Positions 3,173 through 37,605 of a stretch of 64,000 nt of DNA are shown here, piece after piece; position 1 is the first letter of the stretch, and every line of letters starts with the position of its first letter. A program made the position numbers and the translations under genes. Source of the DNA: Candidatus Saccharibacteria bacterium 49-20. Its GTDB lineage: Bacteria > Patescibacteriota > Saccharimonadia > Saccharimonadales > Saccharimonadaceae. Below the pieces are notes generated by a model. The model had not been told where the DNA came from, ran no database searches, and saw only the letters and a program-made list of their open reading frames with translations. The stretch is taken from positions 672,141 through 736,140 of the forward strand of contig MKSN01000001.1 of assembly GCA_001897295.1 (NCBI GenBank). The letters are read 5' to 3'.

Positions 3173-4429
3173 TTACGGTGTGCAAGAACCAGCAATATAC
3201 GCATCATTCGTCACGCCAAAGTCTTTACAGAAGTTGCCAGTGACATCGATACTTGCATCTGGATACGGGAAGCTGGTGTCGTAAAGGTCAACGCGGCTTA
3301 AGATGCGCCTGAACACATCGTTTGCGCGTCCTGTTGAGTCGATTTCTGGCTGCACGTCCTTGAAACGAATGACATTTGAGCCAGAGGCGTCTGGGGCGCC
3401 GCCGGTGCTCAGTGCAATCTCGTAGTGCGTGGCGTTATAGAACGGCGTCAGGCGTAGGAATGCGGTGCGATCTCCCCCACCAATAGGTGTTGGCAAACGA
3501 AGTGACATCGCACAGGCATAGCCACCGCTACTCACGTTCGCGCGGCACTGCACGCCAACCGGTGATGAGTTTGGTGAGTCTGGATCTGGATCGTCGGCTG
3601 CATTATTTTTACGAATATCCTGGCCTACAAATGGAGTCGTATTTGGAATATAGCCGATTGCAGCGTTACCACTTGAAGTGCCCGAGTATGGGTATAAGAA
3701 CAGTGTATTCGAGTTACTTTGGCTGCTTCCATTGACGATATCAAAGTCGCCTAGTGTGAAGTTTGTACCAAACTGAATGAGCTGCGCGCGCATCACCGAA
3801 GGGCGCCCCGCAGGCCATGAACTCTGCTGCAAGAGTGGTCGTGGTGAAGAAAGCGGGTTAAGGCTCACCGCACCCGTGACGTTACTCACGTCATCGCGGT
3901 CGTACCAATATACCGTCACCGTGTCGTAGCCAGATACGCCTACAAGTGGGATCATCTGACCCTGGTTTGGCGAAGCATTTCCTACATAGCGTTCCGTTTC
4001 AAGCTTCATCGTCAAACAGGTATAGGCCTGGTTGAGGTCGACATCGTTCGAACTTGATGATTGCTGCACCTTAATTTCACCCGGTGTCGATGGTGAGCCG
4101 CCCGTCACGGCTGAATTAGGCACTACCCCACCAACCAGCACGCCGGCGTTACAGACGTCGGTTGAAAGTTGGCTGCTAAGCGCCGCACAGTCGGTTGGTG
4201 AATTTGAACACACTTGCTGGTAACGAAGCAAGGCGCGCTTAGCGTCTTCAACACCTGCCATCGCTGAGTCATAGGCGCTTTGCGACAAGTCATTGTCACT
4301 TGATTGCTGTTGGTCAGACATCATGAGGCGCAGGAAGCTCACGGTAATCACCGTGATAATAAGCATCGCGAAAATAACGACAAATAGTGAAACTGCACCT
4401 GCTTGTTTGTTCCTGCTCATGGTTTTCAT
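3173..4429 (-). CDS. PilX-like pilus assembly/minor-pilin-associated protein
   Basis: N-terminus QAGAVSLFVVIFAMLIITVITVSFLRLM resembles a PilX_N hydrophobic segment. Last gene of the minor-pilin run, with a 1-nt TAATG overlap with the upstream pilin gene. The large Ser/Thr/Asn-rich body has conserved Cys residues. Confidence 0.65.
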   Translation of the reverse strand: MKTMSRNKQAGAVSLFVVIFAMLIITVITVSFLRLMMSDQQQSSDNDLSQSAYDSAMAGVEDAKRALLRYQQVCSNSPTDCAALSSQLSTDVCNAGVLVGGVVPNSAVTGGSPSTPGEIKVQQSSSSNDVDLNQAYTCLTMKLETERYVGNASPNQGQMIPLVGVSGYDTVTVYWYDRDDVSNVTGAVSLNPLSSPRPLLQQSSWPAGRPSVMRAQLIQFGTNFTLGDFDIVNGSSQSNSNTLFLYPYSGTSSGNAAIGYIPNTTPFVGQDIRKNNAADDPDPDSPNSSPVGVQCRANVSSGGYACAMSLRLPTPIGGGDRTAFLRLTPFYNATHYEIALSTGGAPDASGSNVIRFKDVQPEIDSTGRANDVFRRILSRVDLYDTSFPYPDASIDVTGNFCKDFGVTNDAYIAGSCTP

Positions 4430-5163
4430 TAAACCCTATTCCCCGCCCTAATGACAAGGCTAAATTGTTTTACATTACAGTATCCAGTATCGGCACCAGC
4501 CTGCCCTGCGTTCAAACACGAAAGTTGGTCGGTTGCCATTGTCGCGTTCTCCCCAGACCCAAGCACGTACTCAAAGGTATAGAGTCGCTCGTTCGTCGTG
4601 CTGTCATAGGCAGAACTCGTCGTACTTAAAGTAATCTTATTGATATTCATTTTGTAATCACCCGCCGAAACGAGTTCCTGCGTCTGCGCCACGTCCGCCG
4701 AGCGCACGTTCTTGTAGGTCAGAGCCCCGAGAGCATTTACTGAACAATATAATTTTGCCGCGTCAGGCACCTTCACCAGGTGCACTTCTCGAGTGTGAGA
4801 GGTATTTGTTTCCGTGCCGTACCAGACAAGGTTTGAGTCTGTCGGGTTGCCGGTTGCAGGTGTTTGGAGTGCTTTGCCGTTATTCCAGATATAGGTGTAG
4901 TTGCCAAGGCAGATGCGCCCACCCGCGCTCGTGGTGCGGTAATCAGTCGCCAGCGTAATCGCCTCTACTGAAGAAAGTGACTTACGGAAATCAGCCGAGA
5001 TATCACGCGATACTTGATTCACCTCTTTGAGCGAGAGGCCCTTGCGATAAATCGTACCGATTTGAATCACCGTCATCGCGATCCCAAGCAGCAGCACCGC
5101 GATAAAGCTCATCGCGAGCATGAGTTCAATAATGGTAAATCCCTTTTTAGCCGCGTGGTTCAT
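4429..5163 (-). CDS. type IV minor pilin (prepilin-type N-terminal cleavage/methylation domain)
   Basis: Class III signal KKG|FTIIELMLAMSFIAVLLLGIAM with Glu at +5. Confidence 0.8.
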   Translation of the reverse strand: MNHAAKKGFTIIELMLAMSFIAVLLLGIAMTVIQIGTIYRKGLSLKEVNQVSRDISADFRKSLSSVEAITLATDYRTTSAGGRICLGNYTYIWNNGKALQTPATGNPTDSNLVWYGTETNTSHTREVHLVKVPDAAKLYCSVNALGALTYKNVRSADVAQTQELVSAGDYKMNINKITLSTTSSAYDSTTNERLYTFEYVLGSGENATMATDQLSCLNAGQAGADTGYCNVKQFSLVIRAGNRV

Positions 5164-16850: not shown

Positions 16851-18734
16851 CTAGAACCTAGGGGGCACTTCAATAATCGAAGTTGTCTCAGCGCGATTGT
16901 TTACATCGAGTGATTTTGCCCAAAGATAGGCATCGGCACGAAGATTAAAGGATTCTGCAGATTGTGCGATTGTTGCGCCACTTTCTGCGCCAAACGTACG
17001 ATACAAAAGCAGTCGGTTCACCATCACGGGGCCGTTTATGGTCAGGTTCTTGTTACAATTCGCACCTCGCAGATCAGCCATTTTACTCACTGCGCCACAG
17101 GTCACCAACATGCCATCGTTGCCCGTACCACGCCCCACCAGCCAGGCGTCAACGCTTGTCACACTATCTTTAATAATGATATTTTTCGCAATAATAATCA
17201 CCTGCGGAATGTCGCGAATCGTCTTCAGCGCACCAGTTGCATACTCGATATTTTGATCAATATACACCGTATTGTCGGGCACGTGGATCACCACCCATTT
17301 GCCCTTCGGGATCTTCTCCGACGATGTAAGGTGGACTGCGTCTTTGCTTGTATATACTTTCGTGCTGTCGAGCGTCTTGATATCTGTTGAAGTAGGAGTC
17401 TTTAAGTCGGTCGCGCGGTCAGCCGAGAACCTAGCGGCAAGCGCACTCGCCTGCGACGATGAGGTACTGTACTTGCCTATTTGCTTACTATCGCATTTCG
17501 ATGAATCGTCAGTACGGTTATTTCCAAACGTAAGATAACTGACCGCACATAAATCGCCAGTCGTACGACCACCAGCAAATCCAGAGCCAGACGCCATACC
17601 CGTCACCAGCCCCTTACTTGCGATGCCATACTCAACCCACGATCCGTAGTACTTGCCGTCGCGGTAGCTTACAGCCGTATCAACTGAATTCGCGCGCACC
17701 TCGCCACCCAACACATGTACCTTTGGTCGCTTAATAATCAGCACACACTGCTCGTCCGATTTGGTCGAACCACCAGTATTTTTCGCAGGTTCGGCGTAGG
17801 TGTAGCGGCACAGATTCTTGCCGTAATCGGATGGTTTTACAAGATACGTTGACGTCTTGGAGTCCTTCGCGTCCTTCGCTTTGCGAGCGGTAAACTTCCA
17901 GCTCTCTGCGGTGCCCGTGCCAAGACCCTGCTCGTTATCGGCTCGCCAGGTAATGTCGACGTTCGTCTGATTTGCACCATTATTTTTTATGGTGTGCGCC
18001 CAGGTAATTGTTTCGCCCGGCTCGGCATACTCGCGGTCACGCGCCGTAGTCACCGTGACACTCCATGGTGGATTATCACTCCAACAAAACCACCCCACAC
18101 TCCAGCCCCAAGAGGCTCGATCGCCGCCCGCGCCTTCATACTTAGCGCGAACCGAACGCACCACCTCGTCAGCCGTGCCATAGCCACTAGCTCCGCCGTA
18201 CCGTGCCGAGCCGTCATGCACACCATCCGCATTGTATTCATATGGGTCACCACCCGCGCCTGGTCGATCTATCCACCAGTCTTTTGACGGATACTTCGCA
18301 GCACCACCATTGTTGTTGTCGGGGTTGAAGTTATCCCTGTAATACTCGTAGGTGTTTTGGAACGTAAAGCTCTTCTCCTTACCCGTTGAGTTGCGCACCA
18401 CATACACCCATACCTTGTTCGAGCCCGCCGCACTACACTTCCCCGCAACGCTATTCTTATCGTTCACGTTTCCCCAGTAGCCCGAGTAAAAACCGCCCGA
18501 AGGCCCAGTGGTATCAGACACATCATAGAGCTTCCAACCATGCCCCTTGCTTGTCCAGTAGTCTCCGCTTGCGCCGCTCGAAGTTCCCGGATTTCCCGAT
18601 ACAAATTCAGCGTGCGTTGAAGAGGTTGAAAGCAAGGTGGCGATAGCTACGACGGTCACCGCAATAACCGCACCCCCAATAAGTACGGTCGGCTGCCTCC
18701 ACTGCCCACGATGAAATGGCATCTTCATATGCAT
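16851..18734 (-). CDS. large secreted/anchored protein of unknown function, paralog 2
   Basis: 627 aa with N-terminal TM/signal (VLIGGAVIAVTVVAIATLL). Shares the block structure of 14953-16782 and ends EVPPRF-stop. The exact start is uncertain (three ATGs at 18734, 18728 and 18722). Confidence 0.8.
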   Translation of the reverse strand: MHMKMPFHRGQWRQPTVLIGGAVIAVTVVAIATLLSTSSTHAEFVSGNPGTSSGASGDYWTSKGHGWKLYDVSDTTGPSGGFYSGYWGNVNDKNSVAGKCSAAGSNKVWVYVVRNSTGKEKSFTFQNTYEYYRDNFNPDNNNGGAAKYPSKDWWIDRPGAGGDPYEYNADGVHDGSARYGGASGYGTADEVVRSVRAKYEGAGGDRASWGWSVGWFCWSDNPPWSVTVTTARDREYAEPGETITWAHTIKNNGANQTNVDITWRADNEQGLGTGTAESWKFTARKAKDAKDSKTSTYLVKPSDYGKNLCRYTYAEPAKNTGGSTKSDEQCVLIIKRPKVHVLGGEVRANSVDTAVSYRDGKYYGSWVEYGIASKGLVTGMASGSGFAGGRTTGDLCAVSYLTFGNNRTDDSSKCDSKQIGKYSTSSSQASALAARFSADRATDLKTPTSTDIKTLDSTKVYTSKDAVHLTSSEKIPKGKWVVIHVPDNTVYIDQNIEYATGALKTIRDIPQVIIIAKNIIIKDSVTSVDAWLVGRGTGNDGMLVTCGAVSKMADLRGANCNKNLTINGPVMVNRLLLYRTFGAESGATIAQSAESFNLRADAYLWAKSLDVNNRAETTSIIEVPPRF

Positions 18735-18795
18735 TAAGCATATGCTAAACTGGGCAAACTTCCAATAGGTTAAGTACCGTCACTCACCCCTGTCG

Positions 18796-18804
18796 TGGTA
18801 TACT
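18796..18804 (+). promoter_or_regulatory. extended -10 (TGGTATACT) for ychF, 7 nt from the ATG
   Basis: The sequence reads gtcgTGgTATACTattcactATG with no SD. The geometry fits a leaderless transcript. Confidence 0.55.
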
Positions 18805-18811
18805 ATTCACT

Positions 18812-19894
18812 ATGAGTTTATCTATTGGAATCGTGGGACTCCCGAATGTCGGCAAGTCTACACTCTTTAACGCCCTGACTGACAATAATATTTTGGCAGC
18901 CAACTACCCTTTCGCAACGATTGAGCCAAACACAGGTATTATCGCAGTACCTGATGATCGTCTTGAGGTACTACAAAAAATGTATTCAGCAGAAAAGCTT
19001 ATTCCGGCGACGGTTACTTTTGTTGATATCGCCGGCCTTGTTGCGGGTGCAAGTAAGGGCGAAGGTCTTGGCAACAAGTTCCTCGCAAATATTCGTGAGT
19101 GTGACGCGATTGCCCACGTAGTCCGTGCGTTTGAAGATTCAGATGTCACCCACGTCAACGACCGCGTTGACCCTATCGCCGACATTGAAATCATCAACAC
19201 CGAGCTTATCTTGGCTGACCTTCAATCGATTGAGCGCCACATTCCAAAGCTCGAGCGCGAGGCGAAGGCCAACCCCTCTGCTCGTGGGCAAATTGAAGAA
19301 TTAAAAAAGCTCCAAGCAGAGCTTGAAGCCGGCAAGCTTGCCTCTTCGGTTGAAGGGTTGAGCAAAGAAGTTATCCAAAGCCTGCAGCTACTAAGCGCAA
19401 AGCCAGTTATTTATGTCTTTAACGTCGACGAGTTCACCCTTGGTAACGATGCCCGTAAGGCCGAACTTGCCGAGCTCGTTGCACCTTCTGATAGTGTATT
19501 TATTTGTGCAAAACTTGAAGAGGAACTTCGAGGACTCGCTAAAGATGATGCCGCTGAACTTCTCGCCTCTTACGACGTGACCGAATCTGGCCTTTCGCAA
19601 CTTGCGCGCGTCGCGTACCACACCCTTGGGCTTCAAAGCTACCTGACCGCCGGACCAAAAGAGGTGCGCGCCTGGACAATTAAACAGGGCTCGACCGCCC
19701 CACAGGCCGCTGGTGTCATTCACACCGACTTCGAAAAGGGCTTCATCGCCGCAGCAATTGTTGATTATGATGACTTCGTGACCGCAGGTTCTGAACAAGC
19801 CGCAAAGGCTGCCGGTAAGCTTCGCACCGAAGGGCGCGACTATATCATGCGCCCAGGCGATATTGTTGAATTCCGCTTCAACGTCAGTAAATAA
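18812..19894 (+). CDS. ychF: ribosome-binding ATPase YchF
   Basis: GIVGLPNVGKSTLFNALT P-loop, 360 aa, YchF-type C-terminal domain (DFEKGFIAAAIV...IVEFRFNV). Confidence 0.94.
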   Translation: MSLSIGIVGLPNVGKSTLFNALTDNNILAANYPFATIEPNTGIIAVPDDRLEVLQKMYSAEKLIPATVTFVDIAGLVAGASKGEGLGNKFLANIRECDAIAHVVRAFEDSDVTHVNDRVDPIADIEIINTELILADLQSIERHIPKLEREAKANPSARGQIEELKKLQAELEAGKLASSVEGLSKEVIQSLQLLSAKPVIYVFNVDEFTLGNDARKAELAELVAPSDSVFICAKLEEELRGLAKDDAAELLASYDVTESGLSQLARVAYHTLGLQSYLTAGPKEVRAWTIKQGSTAPQAAGVIHTDFEKGFIAAAIVDYDDFVTAGSEQAAKAAGKLRTEGRDYIMRPGDIVEFRFNVSK

Positions 19895-19915
19895 TTTCTC
19901 CCTAAAAAAGAAGCA

Positions 19916-19940
19916 AGCCCCGGATTAACCGGGGCTTTTT
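19916..19940 (+). terminator. intrinsic terminator of ychF
   Basis: agccccgg-attaa-ccggggct followed by ttttt. Confidence 0.8.
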
Positions 19941-19970
19941 GCCACTTCACCACTCGTTTCGACCGCACCC

Positions 19971-20011
19971 GCGGACCGCCTCACCCCGAAGGGCTAATTG
20001 AGGCGGTCCGC
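19971..20011 (-). terminator. 13-bp perfect GC-rich hairpin spanning the stop codon of the sortase-like gene (no U-tract)
   Basis: gcggaccgcctca (19971-19983) pairs with tgaggcggtccgc (19999-20011). No U-run follows on the minus strand. Terminator function is inferred. Confidence 0.5.
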
Positions 20012-20767
20012 GAGACGGGACTCGAGGTGTTCATTGGAGGCAGACTCTTCCACCAGCGGCTCCGGGTACTGGACCTGAAGCACGACGGCAGTATTCTGCG
20101 TGGTGTGACCATCTTGGCGCGGGCCGTCCCGGTTGCAGGTCACGAAGACCCACTTGCCAGGCTGTGGCTCGGGGCTGAACACCCGTCCGTCCTGCGAGAA
20201 GTCCGACTTACTGATGTCGAACACCTCTTGGACGACGAGCGTCACCGTTTCGCCACAGGCAGTCACCGTCACAACGTCACCCGGCTTAAAGTCGGTGATG
20301 TGATCGAACACCGCGCCAACCCCGAGATCGAGGTAGGCGTGGCCGTACACATACACCGCATCTTCAGCCTGCGTCGACATGACGCTGTAGATGTTGTCGT
20401 GACGGTAGTAGCCAGAGTACCAGACGGCCTGCGAGACTTCGGGCGGATTGACTCCACCTTCAGCCTGCGCCTGCTCGTATGTGTACTCCCCCACCTCCGC
20501 CTCCAGTCCAATGGACGGGGCGGAAATGTGAGCCGCAGTGCATGCGGCCGGCCTGGGTGTGGGCGTTGGGGTCGGCGTGGGTGCTTCCGTCGGGGTTGCC
20601 GACGGAGTGGGCTCACGCGTCACCGTCGGACTTGGCGAAGGATCCGCAGCGCTCGTGGGGGGCGTGCCGAACGTCAGGTATGCACCTGCCGCAAGCGACA
20701 CGACCCCCAGAGCAACTACGAGGACCGCCAAGACGCGACGCACACGACGACGCGTCTTGCGAGCCAT
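19994..20767 (-). CDS. sortase-like transpeptidase (class E/F-like architecture), high-GC
   Basis: N-terminal TM, a Pro/Thr/Ala linker, then sortase-like blocks: ISAPSIGLEAEV, VYVYGHAY (His), AVFDHITDFKPGDVVTV and WVFVTCNRD (TC Cys). The Arg usually found about 12-14 residues after the Cys is not obvious (GHTTQNTAVV). Third codon positions are strongly G/C in this frame. Confidence 0.65.
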   Translation of the reverse strand: MARKTRRRVRRVLAVLVVALGVVSLAAGAYLTFGTPPTSAADPSPSPTVTREPTPSATPTEAPTPTPTPTPRPAACTAAHISAPSIGLEAEVGEYTYEQAQAEGGVNPPEVSQAVWYSGYYRHDNIYSVMSTQAEDAVYVYGHAYLDLGVGAVFDHITDFKPGDVVTVTACGETVTLVVQEVFDISKSDFSQDGRVFSPEPQPGKWVFVTCNRDGPRQDGHTTQNTAVVLQVQYPEPLVEESASNEHLESRLADRLN

Positions 20768-21717
20768 CAGCGACGGATCGCCGAGAGCTTGGACCGACGC
20801 ACGAACGCCATGACGACGATCGTGATGAACAGCACGCCGACACCCATCAGGCTGTAGCCGAGGACCGAGGGGCCCTCGACGACGTCACCCGTGTGGGCGG
20901 CCGGCGGGGCCGGCTTGACGGGCGTCTGCACGACCGGCTGCTGAACGACGGGCGCCTGGACCTCGGGGGTCGTGGGCGTCTCGCCGGACGGCGGCGTGGT
21001 TCCACCGTCGCCACCACCGTCACCCGGGTTGGGGCACGGGATGGTGACGTCGTAGGAGTTGCCGACCGGGCTGTCCGGGATGAACACCCCGAACACGTAG
21101 GTACCGCACGGCGACCACGGGAACGAACCCGACTGAGTCAGCGAGCCACCCTCGGTGAACGTGAGCTCCTTCGCGACGTCCTGCGCCCCGTAGCCGATGA
21201 TCACGGTCTGCGGGAGCGGGACGTTCTCCGGGCCCAGGTTGACGACGTAGTCGACACCCGAACCGTCCGCAGACGGCGTGAGCGTGGCGCTGACCGTCGG
21301 GCTGACGACCGGCGGGGTCGCGTCGCAGGTCCCGTCGAAGGTGAACTCGTTGACGAACAGGGTCTCGGCCGTGGTGTTGAGCCAGTACGAGACGGTGAAC
21401 GTCGACGGGAACGTGTCGACGGGAACGGTGACCGAGCGCGTGAACGGCGAGATGACGCCGACGGCGTAGTTCTCGACGTTCAGGCTGGCACCGTTGACGC
21501 TGAAGCCGCCCTGCATCTCCGCGTCGATGCCCACGGTGGGGACCGAAACGGTGAAGGTGGCGACGTTGTCGGCACAGGTGCCCGAGTTGCTGACCTGGCC
21601 GATGGCCGCCCAGGAATCGGGCGGCGCGGCACTGGCCGCGGTAGCGGGCACGATGACGGACAGGGACACGGCGGCAGCAGCCGCCAGGGCCGCCATGAGG
21701 CGGTTGCGCTTGCGCAT
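20767..21717 (-). CDS. cell-wall-anchored surface protein with AAHTG sorting-like signal, high-GC
   Basis: Signal peptide MRKRNRLMAALAAAAAVSLSVIVPATAASA, then two Cys-pair-containing beta-rich segments and a Pro-rich stalk. AAHTG (nt 20887-20901) is followed by a hydrophobic helix and an RRSKLSAIRR tail. The stop overlaps the sortase start (TGATG, 20765-20769). Confidence 0.7.
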   Translation of the reverse strand: MRKRNRLMAALAAAAAVSLSVIVPATAASAAPPDSWAAIGQVSNSGTCADNVATFTVSVPTVGIDAEMQGGFSVNGASLNVENYAVGVISPFTRSVTVPVDTFPSTFTVSYWLNTTAETLFVNEFTFDGTCDATPPVVSPTVSATLTPSADGSGVDYVVNLGPENVPLPQTVIIGYGAQDVAKELTFTEGGSLTQSGSFPWSPCGTYVFGVFIPDSPVGNSYDVTIPCPNPGDGGGDGGTTPPSGETPTTPEVQAPVVQQPVVQTPVKPAPPAAHTGDVVEGPSVLGYSLMGVGVLFITIVVMAFVRRSKLSAIRR

Positions 21718-21822
21718 GTTGTCTCCAAATGGTGATGTGGCACACCGGAGTATCCGGTGGGCTATGTGATGGCACCCTCCCTATTCTGTAAGGGGTGGTG
21801 TGTTTCCATGACACTAGTGGGG

Positions 21823-21831
21823 ATTATACCA
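21823..21831 (-). promoter_or_regulatory. extended -10 (TGGTATAAT) upstream of the high-GC island
   Basis: The minus strand reads tttttaTGGTATAATcccc in AT-rich sequence about 100 nt upstream of ATG 21717. The leader contains a caccgga-tac-tccggtg hairpin (about 21748-21764). Confidence 0.45.
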
Positions 21832-21878
21832 TAAAAAGCTAAAAAAGTAAATACTCTCGGCTTTTCATACCGCTTCGC

Positions 21879-22604
21879 TTAGAGCGATTTCAACAGGTAG
21901 AAGCGCTCGCGATTACCCTTCGAGCCGGCCACTTCACTATCGCGCTTGTCCTGAATAATAAATAAGTCTTTCGCCCAAAACTCAAAATCCTTCAAAATCT
22001 GACGGCGCACACCATCATTTTTAATAATTCCTTTATTTGTCTGGTGCTTGCCCGCTTCAAACTGCGGCTTTACCATCGCAACGATTTGCGTATCTTTCGT
22101 CACAAGCGCGACTGCCAAATGAGGCAAGATATCGCGAAGGCTAATAAATGACACGTCGATCACGACAATATTTGGACGATCCGCCGCAGCTAACGTAAAG
22201 TCGCGAATATCGGTCTTTTCATGGAGTTCAATCCGGGGATCATCCTGAAGACTTGGGTGGAGTTGGTCGGTTCCCACATCAACCGCGTATACCTTTTTCG
22301 CGCCGTGTTGCAACGAGTAATCAGTAAATCCACCCGTGCTACTTCCGACATCAAGCACCACCTTATCTTTAAAATTAAGGTTGAGAAGCTTCGCAACACT
22401 CGCAAGCTTCAACCCCGCCCTACTGACATACTGCTCATCGGCAAGTAACTTAAGCTCGGAATCTTCGCGCACAAAGTGACCCGATTTCGTCACCACTTTG
22501 CCATCAACCGTTACTTTCCCAAGCTTAATCCAGCTCTCCGCCTGAGAGCGTGTTGGGGCAAGTCCACGAGCGGTCAGCTCGGCGTCTAAACGGTTTTTAG
22601 TCAT
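21879..22604 (-). CDS. tlyA: TlyA-family rRNA 2'-O-methyltransferase
   Basis: N-terminal S4 domain (RLDAELTARGLAPTRSQAESWIKLGKVTVDG) plus FtsJ-type methyltransferase (VLDVGSSTGGFTD). Confidence 0.9.
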   Translation of the reverse strand: MTKNRLDAELTARGLAPTRSQAESWIKLGKVTVDGKVVTKSGHFVREDSELKLLADEQYVSRAGLKLASVAKLLNLNFKDKVVLDVGSSTGGFTDYSLQHGAKKVYAVDVGTDQLHPSLQDDPRIELHEKTDIRDFTLAAADRPNIVVIDVSFISLRDILPHLAVALVTKDTQIVAMVKPQFEAGKHQTNKGIIKNDGVRRQILKDFEFWAKDLFIIQDKRDSEVAGSKGNRERFYLLKSL

Positions 22605-22609
22605 AAATT

Positions 22610-23143
22610 CTATTGATTCCTTTCGGAGTGTTTAATAATGCGCGCGTCGGTGGCCATTGCAGCCCCCTTAAGCCCAATCTTGGCAACAATTTGCCAGGTT
22701 GCACGACCCTCTCGCTTCTCGGCGATTGAAAAGCCACCTATCTCAATGGTATCACCCTTCTGGGCACGAGGATCATCCTTGTCGATTGAGATGTGAGGAT
22801 TGTACGGCATGCGGTACTGGGCATTATGGGGTAAGTACTGAAATACCGCCAGAATCTTTCGGTGCACCGCCATAAGTTGAGGTGTGTGCTCAAGATGGCG
22901 TACGGGTACGTCGCGCTTGGGACCAAATTTGTCATCCTCTCCAATAGTGGCCATAAACGGCTCCATTGGGTTGATATAACGGCGAAGCTGCTCGGCGTGC
23001 GCAGGCCTCAGGGTTGTCTCGACTGGCGGAAAATACGTCATGTGGAGCGGCCACTCCCCACTTGGGAACTCTTCGCCCAGCTGCACCGGCTCAACAAAAA
23101 ACGCCGGGAGGATTTTTCCACCCCGCGCTTCCTGTTCAGACAT
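22610..23143 (-). CDS. 2H phosphoesterase superfamily protein (LigT-like)
   Basis: Two H-x-T/S motifs at appropriate spacing (PLHMTYF and NPHISID). 177 aa. Confidence 0.5.
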   Translation of the reverse strand: MSEQEARGGKILPAFFVEPVQLGEEFPSGEWPLHMTYFPPVETTLRPAHAEQLRRYINPMEPFMATIGEDDKFGPKRDVPVRHLEHTPQLMAVHRKILAVFQYLPHNAQYRMPYNPHISIDKDDPRAQKGDTIEIGGFSIAEKREGRATWQIVAKIGLKGAAMATDARIIKHSERNQ

Positions 23144-23148
23144 GCTGG

Positions 23149-23715
23149 TTACTTCTTTCGTTCTCGGTATGAACCGTTTTCGGTGTCGACGGAAAGAATG
23201 TCGCCTACCTTAATGAACGCAGGAACCTTGATGACAAGGCCTGTTTCAAGTGTGGCGTCCTTAAGGACACTACTTGTAGTATCGCCCTTTACGACGTCTT
23301 CGGTGTAGGTTACTTCAAGGTAAAGGTTCTTTGGAAGCTCTACGTTGATAACAGTACCCTCGAAGAATTGAAGTGAAAGGCTGTCACCTTCTTTAAGGTA
23401 TGGAGCTGCATCGGCACAGACATCAGCAGGAAGCTGGAACTGCTCGAAGCTCTCTGGATCCATAAAGTAAAAGTTGTCAGTGTCTTTGTAGAGATACTGG
23501 ACCGTTTGGTACGTTACTTCTGCTGAATCGATCTTGTCTTGACCCTTGTAGGTCTTTGGGATCACAGAACCATCAATCAGGTTCTTTAGGCGGATGTTCA
23601 CGATGCTTCCGCCGCGGCCCATCACCTTTTGGTTGTAGTCGATAACCTTAAAAGGCTTGCCGTCCACTTGAACGACAACGCCTTTCTTTAGGTCAGTTGG
23701 TTGCAACTGCGCCAT
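23149..23715 (-). CDS. efp: elongation factor P
   Basis: 188 aa; LKKGVVVQVDGKPFKVIDYNQKVMGRGGSIVNIRLKNL is typical of the EF-P N-terminal KOW domain. Confidence 0.94.
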   Translation of the reverse strand: MAQLQPTDLKKGVVVQVDGKPFKVIDYNQKVMGRGGSIVNIRLKNLIDGSVIPKTYKGQDKIDSAEVTYQTVQYLYKDTDNFYFMDPESFEQFQLPADVCADAAPYLKEGDSLSLQFFEGTVINVELPKNLYLEVTYTEDVVKGDTTSSVLKDATLETGLVIKVPAFIKVGDILSVDTENGSYRERKK

Positions 23716-23721
23716 GGTCGA

Positions 23722-23922
23722 TTACCCTTGTGCTACGAATGGTAGTAGTGCAAGGTGACGAGCACGCTTAATCGCTACTGCGAGTTGGCGTTGTTGCTTC
23801 GCGCTAAGGCCAGTCTTACCGATTGGTTCGATTTGACCGTAGATGTTTACGTAACGCTGCAGAGTCTTGACGTCTTTGTAGTCAAAGTATGCAGGTGTGT
23901 CTTTCTTCATACGTTTTGCCAT
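23722..23922 (-). CDS. rpsR: 30S ribosomal protein S18
   Basis: [14 protein letters not shown]...[25 protein letters not shown]. Confidence 0.94.
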
Positions 23923-28128: not shown

Positions 28129-28599
28129 ATGCGCACTACCCCGCATACGATCCCGGACTGTGACGTTCAGTTCGTGATAGGGCCTCGTGTCAATATCCTA
28201 CGTATGAACAACAACGTGCTTCGCACCGTCTGTGACGGCGAGTACGAGGGCTGGTCTCCCCGACTGGTCCGACTGGCGTTCAAGCGTGAGATCTTCGACG
28301 CAAGAGGTATCGGGCTATGGAGCAAGATCTTCGAAGGTATCGAAGGAATTCCCATTCGCCTGAGCGACGAACTGCAGGCATCGTACAATGCCCTGCTGGA
28401 TTCACATGCGCGCGTCACACTGACGCGGGTCAACTTCGATCGGAGAAATCTGTTCAAGCGCCCGCCCCTCTGGTCACGCATCAAGCTCACGCTCGTCCAG
28501 CCCACTACTCGTCGCCTCCGCTTCGAGCAGCCGGCTGCGACTGGACCTATCTCCATCTACAACGCGTCCATCGGTCGAATCGACCCGATTGCCGCCTGA
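28129..28599 (+). CDS. hypothetical protein, elevated-GC single-gene cassette A
   Basis: 156-aa ORF with GAAAGGAAG SD 5 nt upstream of the ATG, third positions enriched in G/C, and a long GC hairpin after the stop. No motif recognised. Confidence 0.55.
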   Translation: MRTTPHTIPDCDVQFVIGPRVNILRMNNNVLRTVCDGEYEGWSPRLVRLAFKREIFDARGIGLWSKIFEGIEGIPIRLSDELQASYNALLDSHARVTLTRVNFDRRNLFKRPPLWSRIKLTLVQPTTRRLRFEQPAATGPISIYNASIGRIDPIAA

Positions 28600-36978: not shown

Positions 36979-37007
36979 TTGATATATTATATAACTTATG
37001 TTATAAT
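36979..37007 (+). promoter_or_regulatory. sigma-70 promoter TTGATA-17-TATAAT for cassette B, with the -10 in the loop of an inverted repeat
   Basis: TTGATAtattatataacttatgtTATAAT has an exact 17-nt spacer. An inverted repeat cttatgt/acataag (36995-37016) brackets the -10. Confidence 0.6.
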
Positions 37008-37065
37008 ATACATAAGCTTATGTTCCTGCATCCGCAGTGAGCGAAGTCCGAGAGAAAGGAAGGCC

Positions 37066-37605
37066 ATGGCCTCCACCTCACCCGCACCTTTCCCGTACCG
37101 CGACGCCAGAAGCACTCACCTTCACGTTCGCCAGATGCACGAAAACGTCGGCAACTTCCCCTACTTCGAAGAAGAGGGGTCGCTGCCCGTCATCGACGCC
37201 GACACGTACTCTGCATGGCGGCGCCTGGAGTTGCTATTCCCCGACGCCAACACCGTGGAGACAGGGCATCCCTTCGGAATACCTGCTCGTATGGAATTCT
37301 TCTGGGACCCCAGCTACGACAGTCGGGGTGTGACGTTCTTCGACGACAAGGGTCACCTCATCGTCCACGTCCTGCACGCCCTACTGGGCTACGGCGGCTC
37401 CGGACCGATGTTCAGCAAGCAGATCATGCTGCATCTCGGCGTCTCGGAAACGATGTTCCAGGACATCCAGTCCGCACTCTGGGATCAGCGGCCCTACAAG
37501 GTCGTCCTCTCCCGCGAGCGTCACGACATCGTCGATGAGGACGTCGAGTTCGTCGCTCCTGGCTCTGGCATTCTGCCGAGCTGGGAGTGGTGGCGCGTGC
37601 TCTGA
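37066..37605 (+). CDS. hypothetical protein, elevated-GC single-gene cassette B
   Basis: 179-aa ORF from ATG 37066, preceded by GAGAAAGGAAG. Third positions are enriched in G/C, and a 12-bp GC hairpin follows the stop. Contains an LLGYGGSGP motif that I cannot assign to a family. Confidence 0.55.
   Translation: MASTSPAPFPYRDARSTHLHVRQMHENVGNFPYFEEEGSLPVIDADTYSAWRRLELLFPDANTVETGHPFGIPARMEFFWDPSYDSRGVTFFDDKGHLIVHVLHALLGYGGSGPMFSKQIMLHLGVSETMFQDIQSALWDQRPYKVVLSRERHDIVDEDVEFVAPGSGILPSWEWWRVL

Follow-up and report, generated by a model that had tools for sequence, protein, structure and literature searches.

A GC-rich operon of a class-F-like sortase and a variable surface protein, probably native and long resident at the tlyA-ychF locus of Saccharibacteria

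We analysed a stretch of 64,000 nucleotides from Candidatus Saccharibacteria bacterium 49-20 (contig MKSN01000001.1, positions 672,141 to 736,140), which is called the window below and whose numbering is used throughout. Between tlyA and ychF the window contains a GC-rich pair of genes, which encode a surface protein and a class-F-like sortase. It is likely that this pair is a native, long-resident operon of the Saccharibacterium, by which a variable protein is exposed at the surface of the cell. The initial annotation of the segment, made from the sequence alone, had described a sortase with its own adjacent substrate, translationally coupled and behind a native-type promoter, and this description is supported by the TGATG overlap of the two genes, the match to Pfam family PF04203, the Foldseek results, the promoter scan and the only sorting-signal-like C-terminus in the window. 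It had also proposed that the pair was recently acquired. Since the best homologs belong to the same lineage, sit at the same locus and have a similar composition, an outcome that the annotation itself had named as speaking against its proposal, this part is refuted; besides, the synonymous divergence of the sortase gene equals that of the flanking genes and the substitutions are compositionally balanced.

Conservation of the locus in Saccharibacteria

The best matches of ychF are Saccharibacterial metagenome-assembled genomes (68-70% identity), and the gene order FtsK-S6-SSB-S18-EFP-TlyA-X-sortase-ychF-…-PilM, in which X is the surface protein, recurs in related contigs. Among the fetched loci (numbered with L), the operon lies between tlyA and ychF in L001-L008, L094, L097, L090, L100 and L101, and it stands beside ychF on the shorter contigs L089 and L102. 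It occupies the same locus in at least 8 Saccharibacterial lineages and is GC-rich in each of them: at these loci the operon genes have a GC content of 0.57-0.69 and a GC content at third codon positions (GC3) of up to 0.92, compared with 0.44-0.52 in the flanks. Copies of the operon in other genomic contexts (L093, L096 and L098) are also GC-rich relative to their flanks (0.34-0.47).

For L001-L008, the identity to the window is 97-99% in ychF and about 95-96% in the sortase, for L094 it is 90% and 74%, for L089 88% and 56-58%, and for L090 80% and 29-36%; the sortases of L097 (44%) and of L100, L101 and L102 (33-36%) complete the series. Across lineages the sortase and ychF identities fall in step (96/99, 74/90, 58/88 and 36/80%). 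Every related Saccharibacterial contig with a ychF identity of at least 80%, which was measured in four of them (L001, L094, L089 and L090; 80-99%), has the operon between tlyA and ychF or beside ychF, and none in this range shows ychF and tlyA adjacent without the insert, the arrangement that the initial annotation had suggested looking for. In more distant Saccharimonadales (ychF 61-70%) the ychF-tlyA slot holds unrelated genes. Close homologs of the window sortase are few, and each one with a readable context sits in the same kind of operon; a metagenome scan with a 5-sequence alignment gave 3 loci.

Composition of the GC-rich segment

The segment at 19941-21835 has a GC content of 0.656, compared with 0.507 in the remaining window (z = 8.6), and no 1.9-kb stretch elsewhere in the window exceeds 0.55. 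In tetranucleotide usage its distance is 0.62, compared with 0.23 ± 0.03 for the background, and a GC scan at 100-nt resolution places its edges at about 19950 and 21790. The jump in composition noticed earlier between the ychF terminator and tlyA is therefore seen in both measures. The claim that almost every third codon position is G or C holds for the surface protein gene (GC3 0.915; 92% of codons end in C or G and 1% in A), but GC3 is uneven and reaches only 0.73 in the sortase gene, while ychF, tlyA, ligT, efp and the gene of a 627-aa protein have 0.50-0.58. When the native codon usage is applied to both proteins, the predicted GC3 is only 0.52.

Several reading frames are open simultaneously in the segment, as had been observed and as the list of open reading frames (ORFs) confirms. 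This is the usual by-product of high GC, and the antisense ORF of 418 aa at 20479-21735 (+) is an artefact. Gene callers can be misled by high GC in the same manner. The public gene call for the substrate in L101 lies on the wrong strand (3952-4848, -), and the real gene at 3895-4998 (+) encodes 367 aa with a signal peptide, GAGTGDVV, a transmembrane (TM) helix and a basic tail; the antisense ORF of the window is the same trap.

Other GC-rich genes were also seen. The next most GC3-rich ORFs of the window are 36979-37605 (+) and 28129-28599 (+), with 0.745 and 0.70 (mean 0.53 ± 0.06), and the former contains a TGTTATAAT element at 36999-37007, so that its real start is probably further downstream. 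Near the operon in other Saccharibacterial contigs, genes with GC 0.61 and GC3 0.73-0.76 are located at L093:4063-4539 (-), which is divergent from the L093 cassette and has a lipoprotein-like product, and at L090:9580-10434 (+), which encodes an unannotated 284-aa protein. These genomes may thus contain GC-rich gene sets other than the operon.

Age of the operon and equilibrium of its composition

Between the window and L001, the number of synonymous substitutions per site (dS) is 0.18 for the sortase gene and 0.18-0.25 for efp, tlyA and ychF, and it is 0.08 for the surface protein gene, which is strongly codon-biased. Substitutions at third positions were polarised with three sequences (window, L001 and L004). 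It turned out that GC-to-AT and AT-to-GC changes number 6 and 8 in the surface protein gene and 15 and 16 in the sortase gene, with 75 and 66 in the flanks. The regime of the flanks would predict GC-to-AT shares of 93% for the surface protein gene and 76% for the sortase gene (P = 2e-6 and 1e-3), and per site AT-to-GC changes in the surface protein gene are about 15 times commoner than the reverse. A foreign segment drifting to the composition of its host would show a large excess of GC-to-AT changes. Because the two directions balance, the high GC is an actively kept equilibrium; the composition of the operon is maintained and is not decaying toward the host value.

The segment bears no insertion signature, as no direct repeats flank it and no tRNA gene lies within 10 kb. 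No mobility gene stands at its borders in the window either, and a serine recombinase occurs only beyond ychF in L001-L005.

As for the cause of the high GC, two candidates were considered and set aside. Plain GC-biased gene conversion at a recombination hotspot is insufficient as stated, since the flanks are equally mosaic yet have ordinary GC. Codon adaptation for high expression is unlikely, since the neighbouring efp gene and, in related loci, the ribosomal protein genes S6 and S18 have a GC3 of about 0.5.

The sortase

The 257-aa protein matches PF04203 with 37.5 bits (cut-off 26.6; E = 2.3e-9; residues 82-225). In its AlphaFold2 (AF2) model the catalytic core has block means of the predicted local distance difference test (pLDDT) mostly of 85-97, and the top 50 Foldseek matches of the model in PDB are all sortases (best 6BWE, E = 2.3e-9, probability 1.00). 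The N-terminal TM segment, the Pro/Thr linker and the sortase-like His and Cys blocks, which had been read from the translation, are confirmed by these results. For the residue counts, an exhaustive profile search gave 2,371 relatives at E <= 1e-10, and the 173 nearest that align were used; His143 is conserved in 168 of 173 and Cys211 in 169 of 173. The gene is under purifying selection, with a ratio of nonsynonymous to synonymous substitution rates (omega) of 0.09 against L001.

The catalytic Arg that the sortase superfamily has at the start of the last strand is absent, and this concerns the whole subfamily rather than this gene alone. Asn225 aligns with the Arg of canonical members (P0049, P0050, P0052, P0053, P0055, P0056, P0058 and P0061), and most of the nearest relatives (138 of 161) have Asn at this position, with Arg in 4. 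The missing Arg had been raised as a caveat about activity; the replacement is real, but it does not serve as an argument for inactivity, since Asn is the norm of the family and its presence is a family trait, not decay. Judging from the alignments, His221 is a candidate replacement for the catalytic Arg (all 11 members of the first family alignment have it, as do 86 of the 173 relatives aligned).

For the class, class F (NF033748) is the best class model of NCBIfam, with 33.2 bits against a cut-off of 166, and the class E model (NF033747) gives 15.8 bits against 160. NCBI gives the name "class F sortase [Candidatus Microsaccharimonas sp.]" to P0104, a Saccharibacterial relative with 35-37% identity.

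The surface protein and its fast evolution

The signal peptide, two Cys-pair domains, Pro-rich stalk, AAHTG, TM helix and RRSKLSAIRR tail, as first described for the 316-aa product, were all verified, and the TGATG at 20765-20769, proposed to couple the two genes, is present, with the stop of the surface protein gene overlapping the start of the sortase gene. In the AF2 model (mean pLDDT 57) two domains are all-beta, the stalk is disordered and the C-terminal part forms a helix. Foldseek matches the model to generic Ig/FN3-type tandem domains only (structural TM-scores about 0.2), from which no specific adhesin family can be named, and no model of Pfam or NCBIfam, anchor models included, matches the protein.

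The protein has the features of a sortase substrate, namely an N-terminal signal peptide and a C-terminal motif followed by a hydrophobic helix and a basic tail, and in the 64-kb window it is the sole ORF with such a C-terminus. The canonical LPXTG is absent and the motif reads AAHTG. At the orthologous position of the cognate proteins, including those of other lineages, we found PPAAHTGD, PPLASTGD, LAATGSD, PPGAATGD, GAGTGDVV, RALTDVV, GATDIVGG and GGATDGG. The motif is an LAXTG-type signal, with a conserved core A/G-x-T which is followed by G and/or D. All 11 homologs of the surface protein that were found come from the same operon type.

The surface protein gene evolves fast, with an omega of 0.56-0.65 compared with 0.09 in the sortase gene and 0.02-0.05 in the flanks. 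Comparison of strains revealed blocks of 82-84% identity in the operon within a context of 98-100%, one of which covers the sorting-signal region. Mosaic blocks also exist in the flanks (window 18700-23800 against L001, L002, L004 and L005; 78-91% inside 99-100%), such as one at the 3' end of tlyA (about 21880-22150) and others in ychF and ligT. The pattern points to frequent homologous recombination among related strains. In L094, L097, L090 and L101 the N-terminal domains of the protein are different or unrecognisable, while the part from the stalk through the motif and TM helix to the basic tail persists. On these comparisons the surface protein is hypervariable, with mosaic alleles and with N-terminal domains swapped between lineages.

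A role as target of a diversity-generating retroelement was dropped without formal test, as the neighbours of the operon include no reverse transcriptase gene and its variation extends over whole domains. Pilus polymerisation in the style of class C sortases was considered too, and no pilin-type motif was noticed.

Promoter, leader and 3' end

The promoter has the -10 element TATAAT with an upstream TG, and reaches 10/12 in the consensus scan; the presumed transcription start is derived from the -10 element. The window has 7 copies of TGNTATAAT, where 1.2 would be expected, which makes the operon promoter one of native style; the AT-rich -10 at 21823-31, which had been likened to those of native genes, is borne out by both the scan and this enrichment. 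The promoter block ATTTACTTTTT…TATG(G/T)TA is kept in L001, L004 and L090, and also in L093 in its different genomic context. The RNA of the leader folds at -33.9 kcal/mol (z = -3.3 against shuffles) and has blocks in common between the window and the distant L090; it may be regulatory. In an Rfam scan of 19850-21950 (E <= 1) neither the leader nor the palindrome described below was assigned to a family, and two sub-threshold sroD matches fell on the ychF terminator.

At the 3' end of the operon is a palindrome with perfect 14-nt arms (19970-19983 and 19999-20012). Its 5' arm codes for the sortase C-terminal residues …ADRL, and the ORF running into the palindrome gives …ADRL tails to many family members. 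The window contains the pattern GGACCGCC-N5-35-GGCGGTCC a single time, with 0 expected. Among 96 fetched loci the exact palindrome is found only after the sortase gene (L001-L008, L093 and L094), and variants with compensatory pair changes (C-G to U-A, C-G to G-C) are found in L089, L090, L096, L097 and L102. The palindrome could stabilise the 3' end of the mRNA, contribute to termination or be a binding site.

About 30 nt from the palindrome on the minus strand follows the hairpin of the ychF terminator, and the 121-nt 3' segment including it (19900-20020) folds at -68.6 kcal/mol (z = -5.5). On the minus strand this terminator has a 9-bp stem with 7 GC pairs and then CTTCTTTTT; on the plus strand the same hairpin stands after the ychF stop and is followed by TTTTTG. 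Since it reads U-tailed on the minus strand too, the operon has a native-type terminator. Of the GC hairpin without a U-tract that the initial annotation had placed at this end, the hairpin itself is present, but it has 14 rather than 13 bp and a native-type, U-tailed terminator does follow it. The features of the operon are collected in Table 1.

Table 1. Positions of the operon features in the window
Feature	Position	Strand	Basis or remark
Surface protein gene, 316 aa	20767-21717	-	ORF and translation
Signal peptide, aa 1-31	21625-21717	-	starts MRKRNRLMAALAAAAAVSLSVIVPATAASA
Beta-sandwich domain 1 (Cys48/Cys131)	21325-21591	-	predicted, AF2 model
Beta-sandwich domain 2 (Cys204/Cys228)	21034-21297	-	predicted, AF2 model
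Pro/Gly/Thr stalk, aa 229-272	20902-21033	-	disordered in AF2 model
AAHTG motif, aa 273-277	20887-20901	-	translation
TM helix, aa 285-306	20800-20865	-	followed by basic tail RRSKLSAIRR
Sortase gene (class-F-like), 257 aa	19994-20767	-	ORF and Pfam PF04203
TM anchor of sortase	20675-20737	-	
Pro/Thr linker of sortase	20540-20674	-	
Catalytic domain of sortase	20063-20539	-	
His143 codon	20339-20341	-	VYVYGHAY block
Cys211 codon	20135-20137	-	FVTCNRD block
His221 codon	20105-20107	-	
Asn225 codon	20093-20095	-	canonical Arg position
Promoter	21823-21851	-	-35 TTTACT 21851-21846, 17-nt spacer, extended -10 TGGTATAAT 21831-21823
5' leader, about 100 nt	21718-21816	-	two predicted hairpins; GGAG Shine-Dalgarno 8 nt before ATG
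Palindrome CGCGGACCGCCTCA-N15-TGAGGCGGTCCGCG	19970-20012		perfect arms; spans sortase stop codon
Bidirectional intrinsic terminator	19915-19937		terminator scan; common to ychF (+) and operon (-)

Neighbouring genes

In a pattern-based scan (loci L009-L038), ychF of the window is 58-63% identical to actinobacterial ychF and 52-56% identical to that of Proteobacteria, Clostridia and Bacteroidota. The higher actinobacterial values could reflect phylogenetic affinity, an old transfer or a bias of the search. Beyond ychF, L001-L005 contain a serine recombinase (Resolvase and Recombinase domains), an AAA_25 protein and an SMC/AAA_13-like gene (L001:7902-12780), and in the place of this set the window has a 627-aa secreted protein (16851-18734). 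The region beyond ychF, which adjoins the conserved locus, is strain-variable and possibly mobile. The ligT-like gene of the 2'-5' RNA ligase family (window 22610-23143) is intact in the window, L002, L003, L004 and L007; in L001, L005, L006 and L008 it is split over two frames (L001:3619-4148), with a 66-aa remnant called.

Origin of the operon and alternative explanations

The same two-gene layout exists in natively high-GC contigs, L099 (0.69-0.70 GC) and L092 (0.67-0.72 GC), where a sortase gene is overlapped by the gene of a small secreted protein that carries A-x-T-D/G together with a TM helix and basic tail; the two enzymes are 35% and 25% identical to the window sortase, respectively. 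P0103, the Saccharibacterial enzyme at the ychF locus of L102, shares 46% identity with P0111, the enzyme of L099, and is closer to it than to most Saccharibacterial enzymes. In a reduced neighbour-joining (NJ) bootstrap tree of the sortases (28 taxa, 146 columns, some saturated distances), P0103 groups with P0111 (68%) and the window with L089 and L097 (88%), and the deeper splits have 21-32%. Because of the grouping of P0103 and the poor resolution of the tree, strict vertical descent across the whole clade is not proven. The sequences make an ancient exchange with a high-GC lineage plausible; an origin of the operon in a high-GC (Actinomycetota-like) lineage and occasional later exchange with such a lineage are both possible. 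For the window's own clade (window, L089 and L097) there is no indication of a recent donor. Of the actinobacterial source put forward in the initial annotation, the recent import falls away, and an ancient origin is only possible, the relatives with this layout being 25-35% identical.

Other explanations were weighed against a native, long-resident operon. If the enzyme-substrate cassette had recently been acquired from a high-GC actinobacterial host, its GC would be the signature of the donor, and the strongly deviating GC and tetranucleotide usage would be accounted for, as would codon usage in actinobacterial style (92% C- or G-ending in the surface protein gene). Members of the sortase family are frequent in contigs of natively high GC that have the same layout (L099 and L092), and in the literature accounts available the cultivated Saccharibacteria live on Actinomycetota. 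However, at least 8 Saccharibacterial lineages have the cassette, GC-rich in each case, at this locus or next to ychF, the sortase dS equals the flank dS, and the substitutions are balanced. Besides, among 5.8 + 1.84 billion protein representatives all matches above 50% identity with context examined belong to the same operon type, and the non-Saccharibacterial relatives checked are only 25-35% identical. Given borders that lack an integrase, a tRNA and direct repeats, and a native-type promoter that is conserved together with the operon, such an acquisition seems very improbable. An assembly artefact, in which a high-GC fragment of another organism was joined into a Saccharibacterial contig, has in its favour the abrupt change of composition and nothing else; 16 contigs, independent in sample and assembler (ENA, Logan and NCBI), have the same junctions, which recur in more distant lineages, the operon has its promoter and terminator in common with native neighbours, and the probability of an artefact is close to nil.

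The tlyA-ychF slot might alternatively have been refilled or exchanged repeatedly with sortase-substrate pairs of high-GC bacteria, which would hold the GC high and explain the divergence of the proteins, the promoter and palindrome being the borders of the exchanged unit. Pairwise identity among the sortases of this one locus can fall to 22-38%, P0103 resembles P0111 of a natively 70% GC contig (46%, with 68% bootstrap), and P0117 of L100 shares 52% identity with P0119, next to which stands a gene with a fasciclin domain and not ychF. L093 has the complete unit (promoter, X, sortase and palindrome) in another genomic context, and homologous recombination is frequent around the locus. In the clade of the window, however, sortase divergence tracks the flanks and the dS values match; the palindrome is common to the Saccharibacterial copies and absent from the high-GC relative L099; and the balanced substitutions mean that GC is held without fresh import. 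The tree itself is poorly resolved (21-32% at the deep splits) and does not give the direction of transfer, and on balance we regard repeated replacement, with the exchanged unit so bounded, as unlikely. The sortase-like protein could also be catalytically dead or serve another role, the Arg being missing, with the surface protein tethered to the membrane by its C-terminal helix. Asn225 in the place of Arg, class models far under their cut-offs and a sorting motif departing from LPXTG agree with that, but Asn is found in 138 of the 161 nearest relatives, including sequences named sortases by their sources, and His and Cys are nearly invariant. An omega of 0.09, the co-inheritance of the enzyme with the A-x-T-G/D signal over deep divergence, and His221 as candidate replacement (kept in 11 of 11 and 86 of 173) also stand against a dead enzyme, which we find improbable.

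Some points weigh against a native, long-resident display operon as well. The sortase tree is poorly resolved, and P0103 groups with the enzyme of a non-Saccharibacterial contig of natively 70% GC. The counts of substitution direction are small (14 and 31), they were polarised with three sequences, and the region recombines. On the side of function, the canonical Arg is absent from the sortase and both the class F and class E models score far under their cut-offs; the surface protein is without a matching family model and has a weak structure model; and we infer the cleavage site, the nucleophile and the wall attachment by analogy.

Proposed function and significance

The operon would be transcribed from the native extended -10 promoter, and the transcript would probably end at the GC hairpin and the terminator shared with ychF. 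The first product would be exported through its signal peptide and held in the membrane by the C-terminal TM helix and basic tail, and the second, a membrane-anchored class-F-like sortase, would be translated by coupling at TGATG. Cleavage of the LAXTG-type signal, at AAHT|G(D), is most likely carried out by Cys211 and His143, and the sortase would then transfer the C-terminal Thr of the surface protein to a peptidoglycan precursor, so that two disulfide-braced Ig-like domains would project from the wall on the Pro/Gly/Thr stalk. The surface protein would be an adhesin or host-contact factor, and the functions considered above for the leader and the palindrome are likewise putative.

A broader picture, which we offer as a tentative and rather doubtful one, is a conserved surface-display locus whose hypervariable Ig-like cargo helps to contact or to choose the actinobacterial host, whose GC and codon bias are actively held, and whose palindrome (GGACCGCC…GGCGGTCC) and promoter bound a portable unit. 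Candidate causes that hold the GC are selection on mRNA or codons, a conversion bias restricted to the cassette, and recurrent exchange with high-GC host DNA.

The GC-rich patch cautions against reading such a segment as recent transfer, as it has stayed GC-rich across a clade whose flanking genes are synonymously saturated. Its equilibrium over the whole clade and the conserved operon-specific palindrome are of modest interest. The locus also offers a rapidly diversifying, probably wall-anchored protein of epibiotic bacteria at a fixed and easily found position. In the literature accounts available, work on host attachment of Saccharibacteria has centred on pili; the surface protein is a candidate host-contact factor that is testable in genetically tractable Saccharibacteria.

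Comparison with known systems

A sortase family is present in more than half of the genomes of the Candidate Phyla Radiation (CPR) (Méheust et al. 2019; PMC6744442). It is known that sortases are widespread in CPR bacteria, and a sortase beside its substrate is a familiar arrangement. Within class F, the only enzyme studied biochemically is SrtF of Cutibacterium (Propionibacterium) acnes (Di Girolamo et al. 2019, cited in PMC11231552 and PMC13251363), and the latter paper describes the physiological roles of the class as largely unknown. The window enzyme resembles class F in its best-scoring class model, in the TC…G(H)…N-V-V signature of the relatives, and in the order of N-terminal TM anchor, Pro/Thr-rich linker and catalytic domain. 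It differs in the loop after the Cys, which in its subfamily reads TCNRDGPRxDGH-T-T-x-N and not TCGGxFDxxxGHYxDN; besides, the Saccharibacterial gene is followed by the conserved palindrome and is paired with a single adjacent hypervariable substrate.

Class E sortases (Streptomyces coelicolor SrtE1, PDB 5CUW; Thermobifida fusca SrtE, PDB 9M4U) are among the Foldseek matches, and like the LAXTG substrates of this class in Actinomycetota, the signals of the window family have Ala at P3 (AAHTG, LASTG and LAATG). Unlike them, the motif of the window family is usually followed by Asp, some lineages have A-x-T-D without Gly, and the canonical Arg is absent from the enzyme.

The segment looks like a genomic island of recent transfer in being an outlier with sharp borders in GC, GC3 and tetranucleotide usage. 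In contrast to such islands, it has no mobility genes, tRNA or repeats, keeps the same site across a family-level clade, and has its composition at equilibrium.

Dedicated pairs of a sortase and a single target side by side are known from SrtB and IsdC of S. aureus, and a marine proteobacterial sortase with its target protein is such a pair in TIGRFAMs. The operon described here is alike in that one sortase gene adjoins one protein with a non-canonical signal, with no other candidate substrate in the window. It is distinguished from these pairs by a different sortase lineage and motif, by the hypervariable substrate, and by the strong enrichment of the pair in GC relative to its genome.

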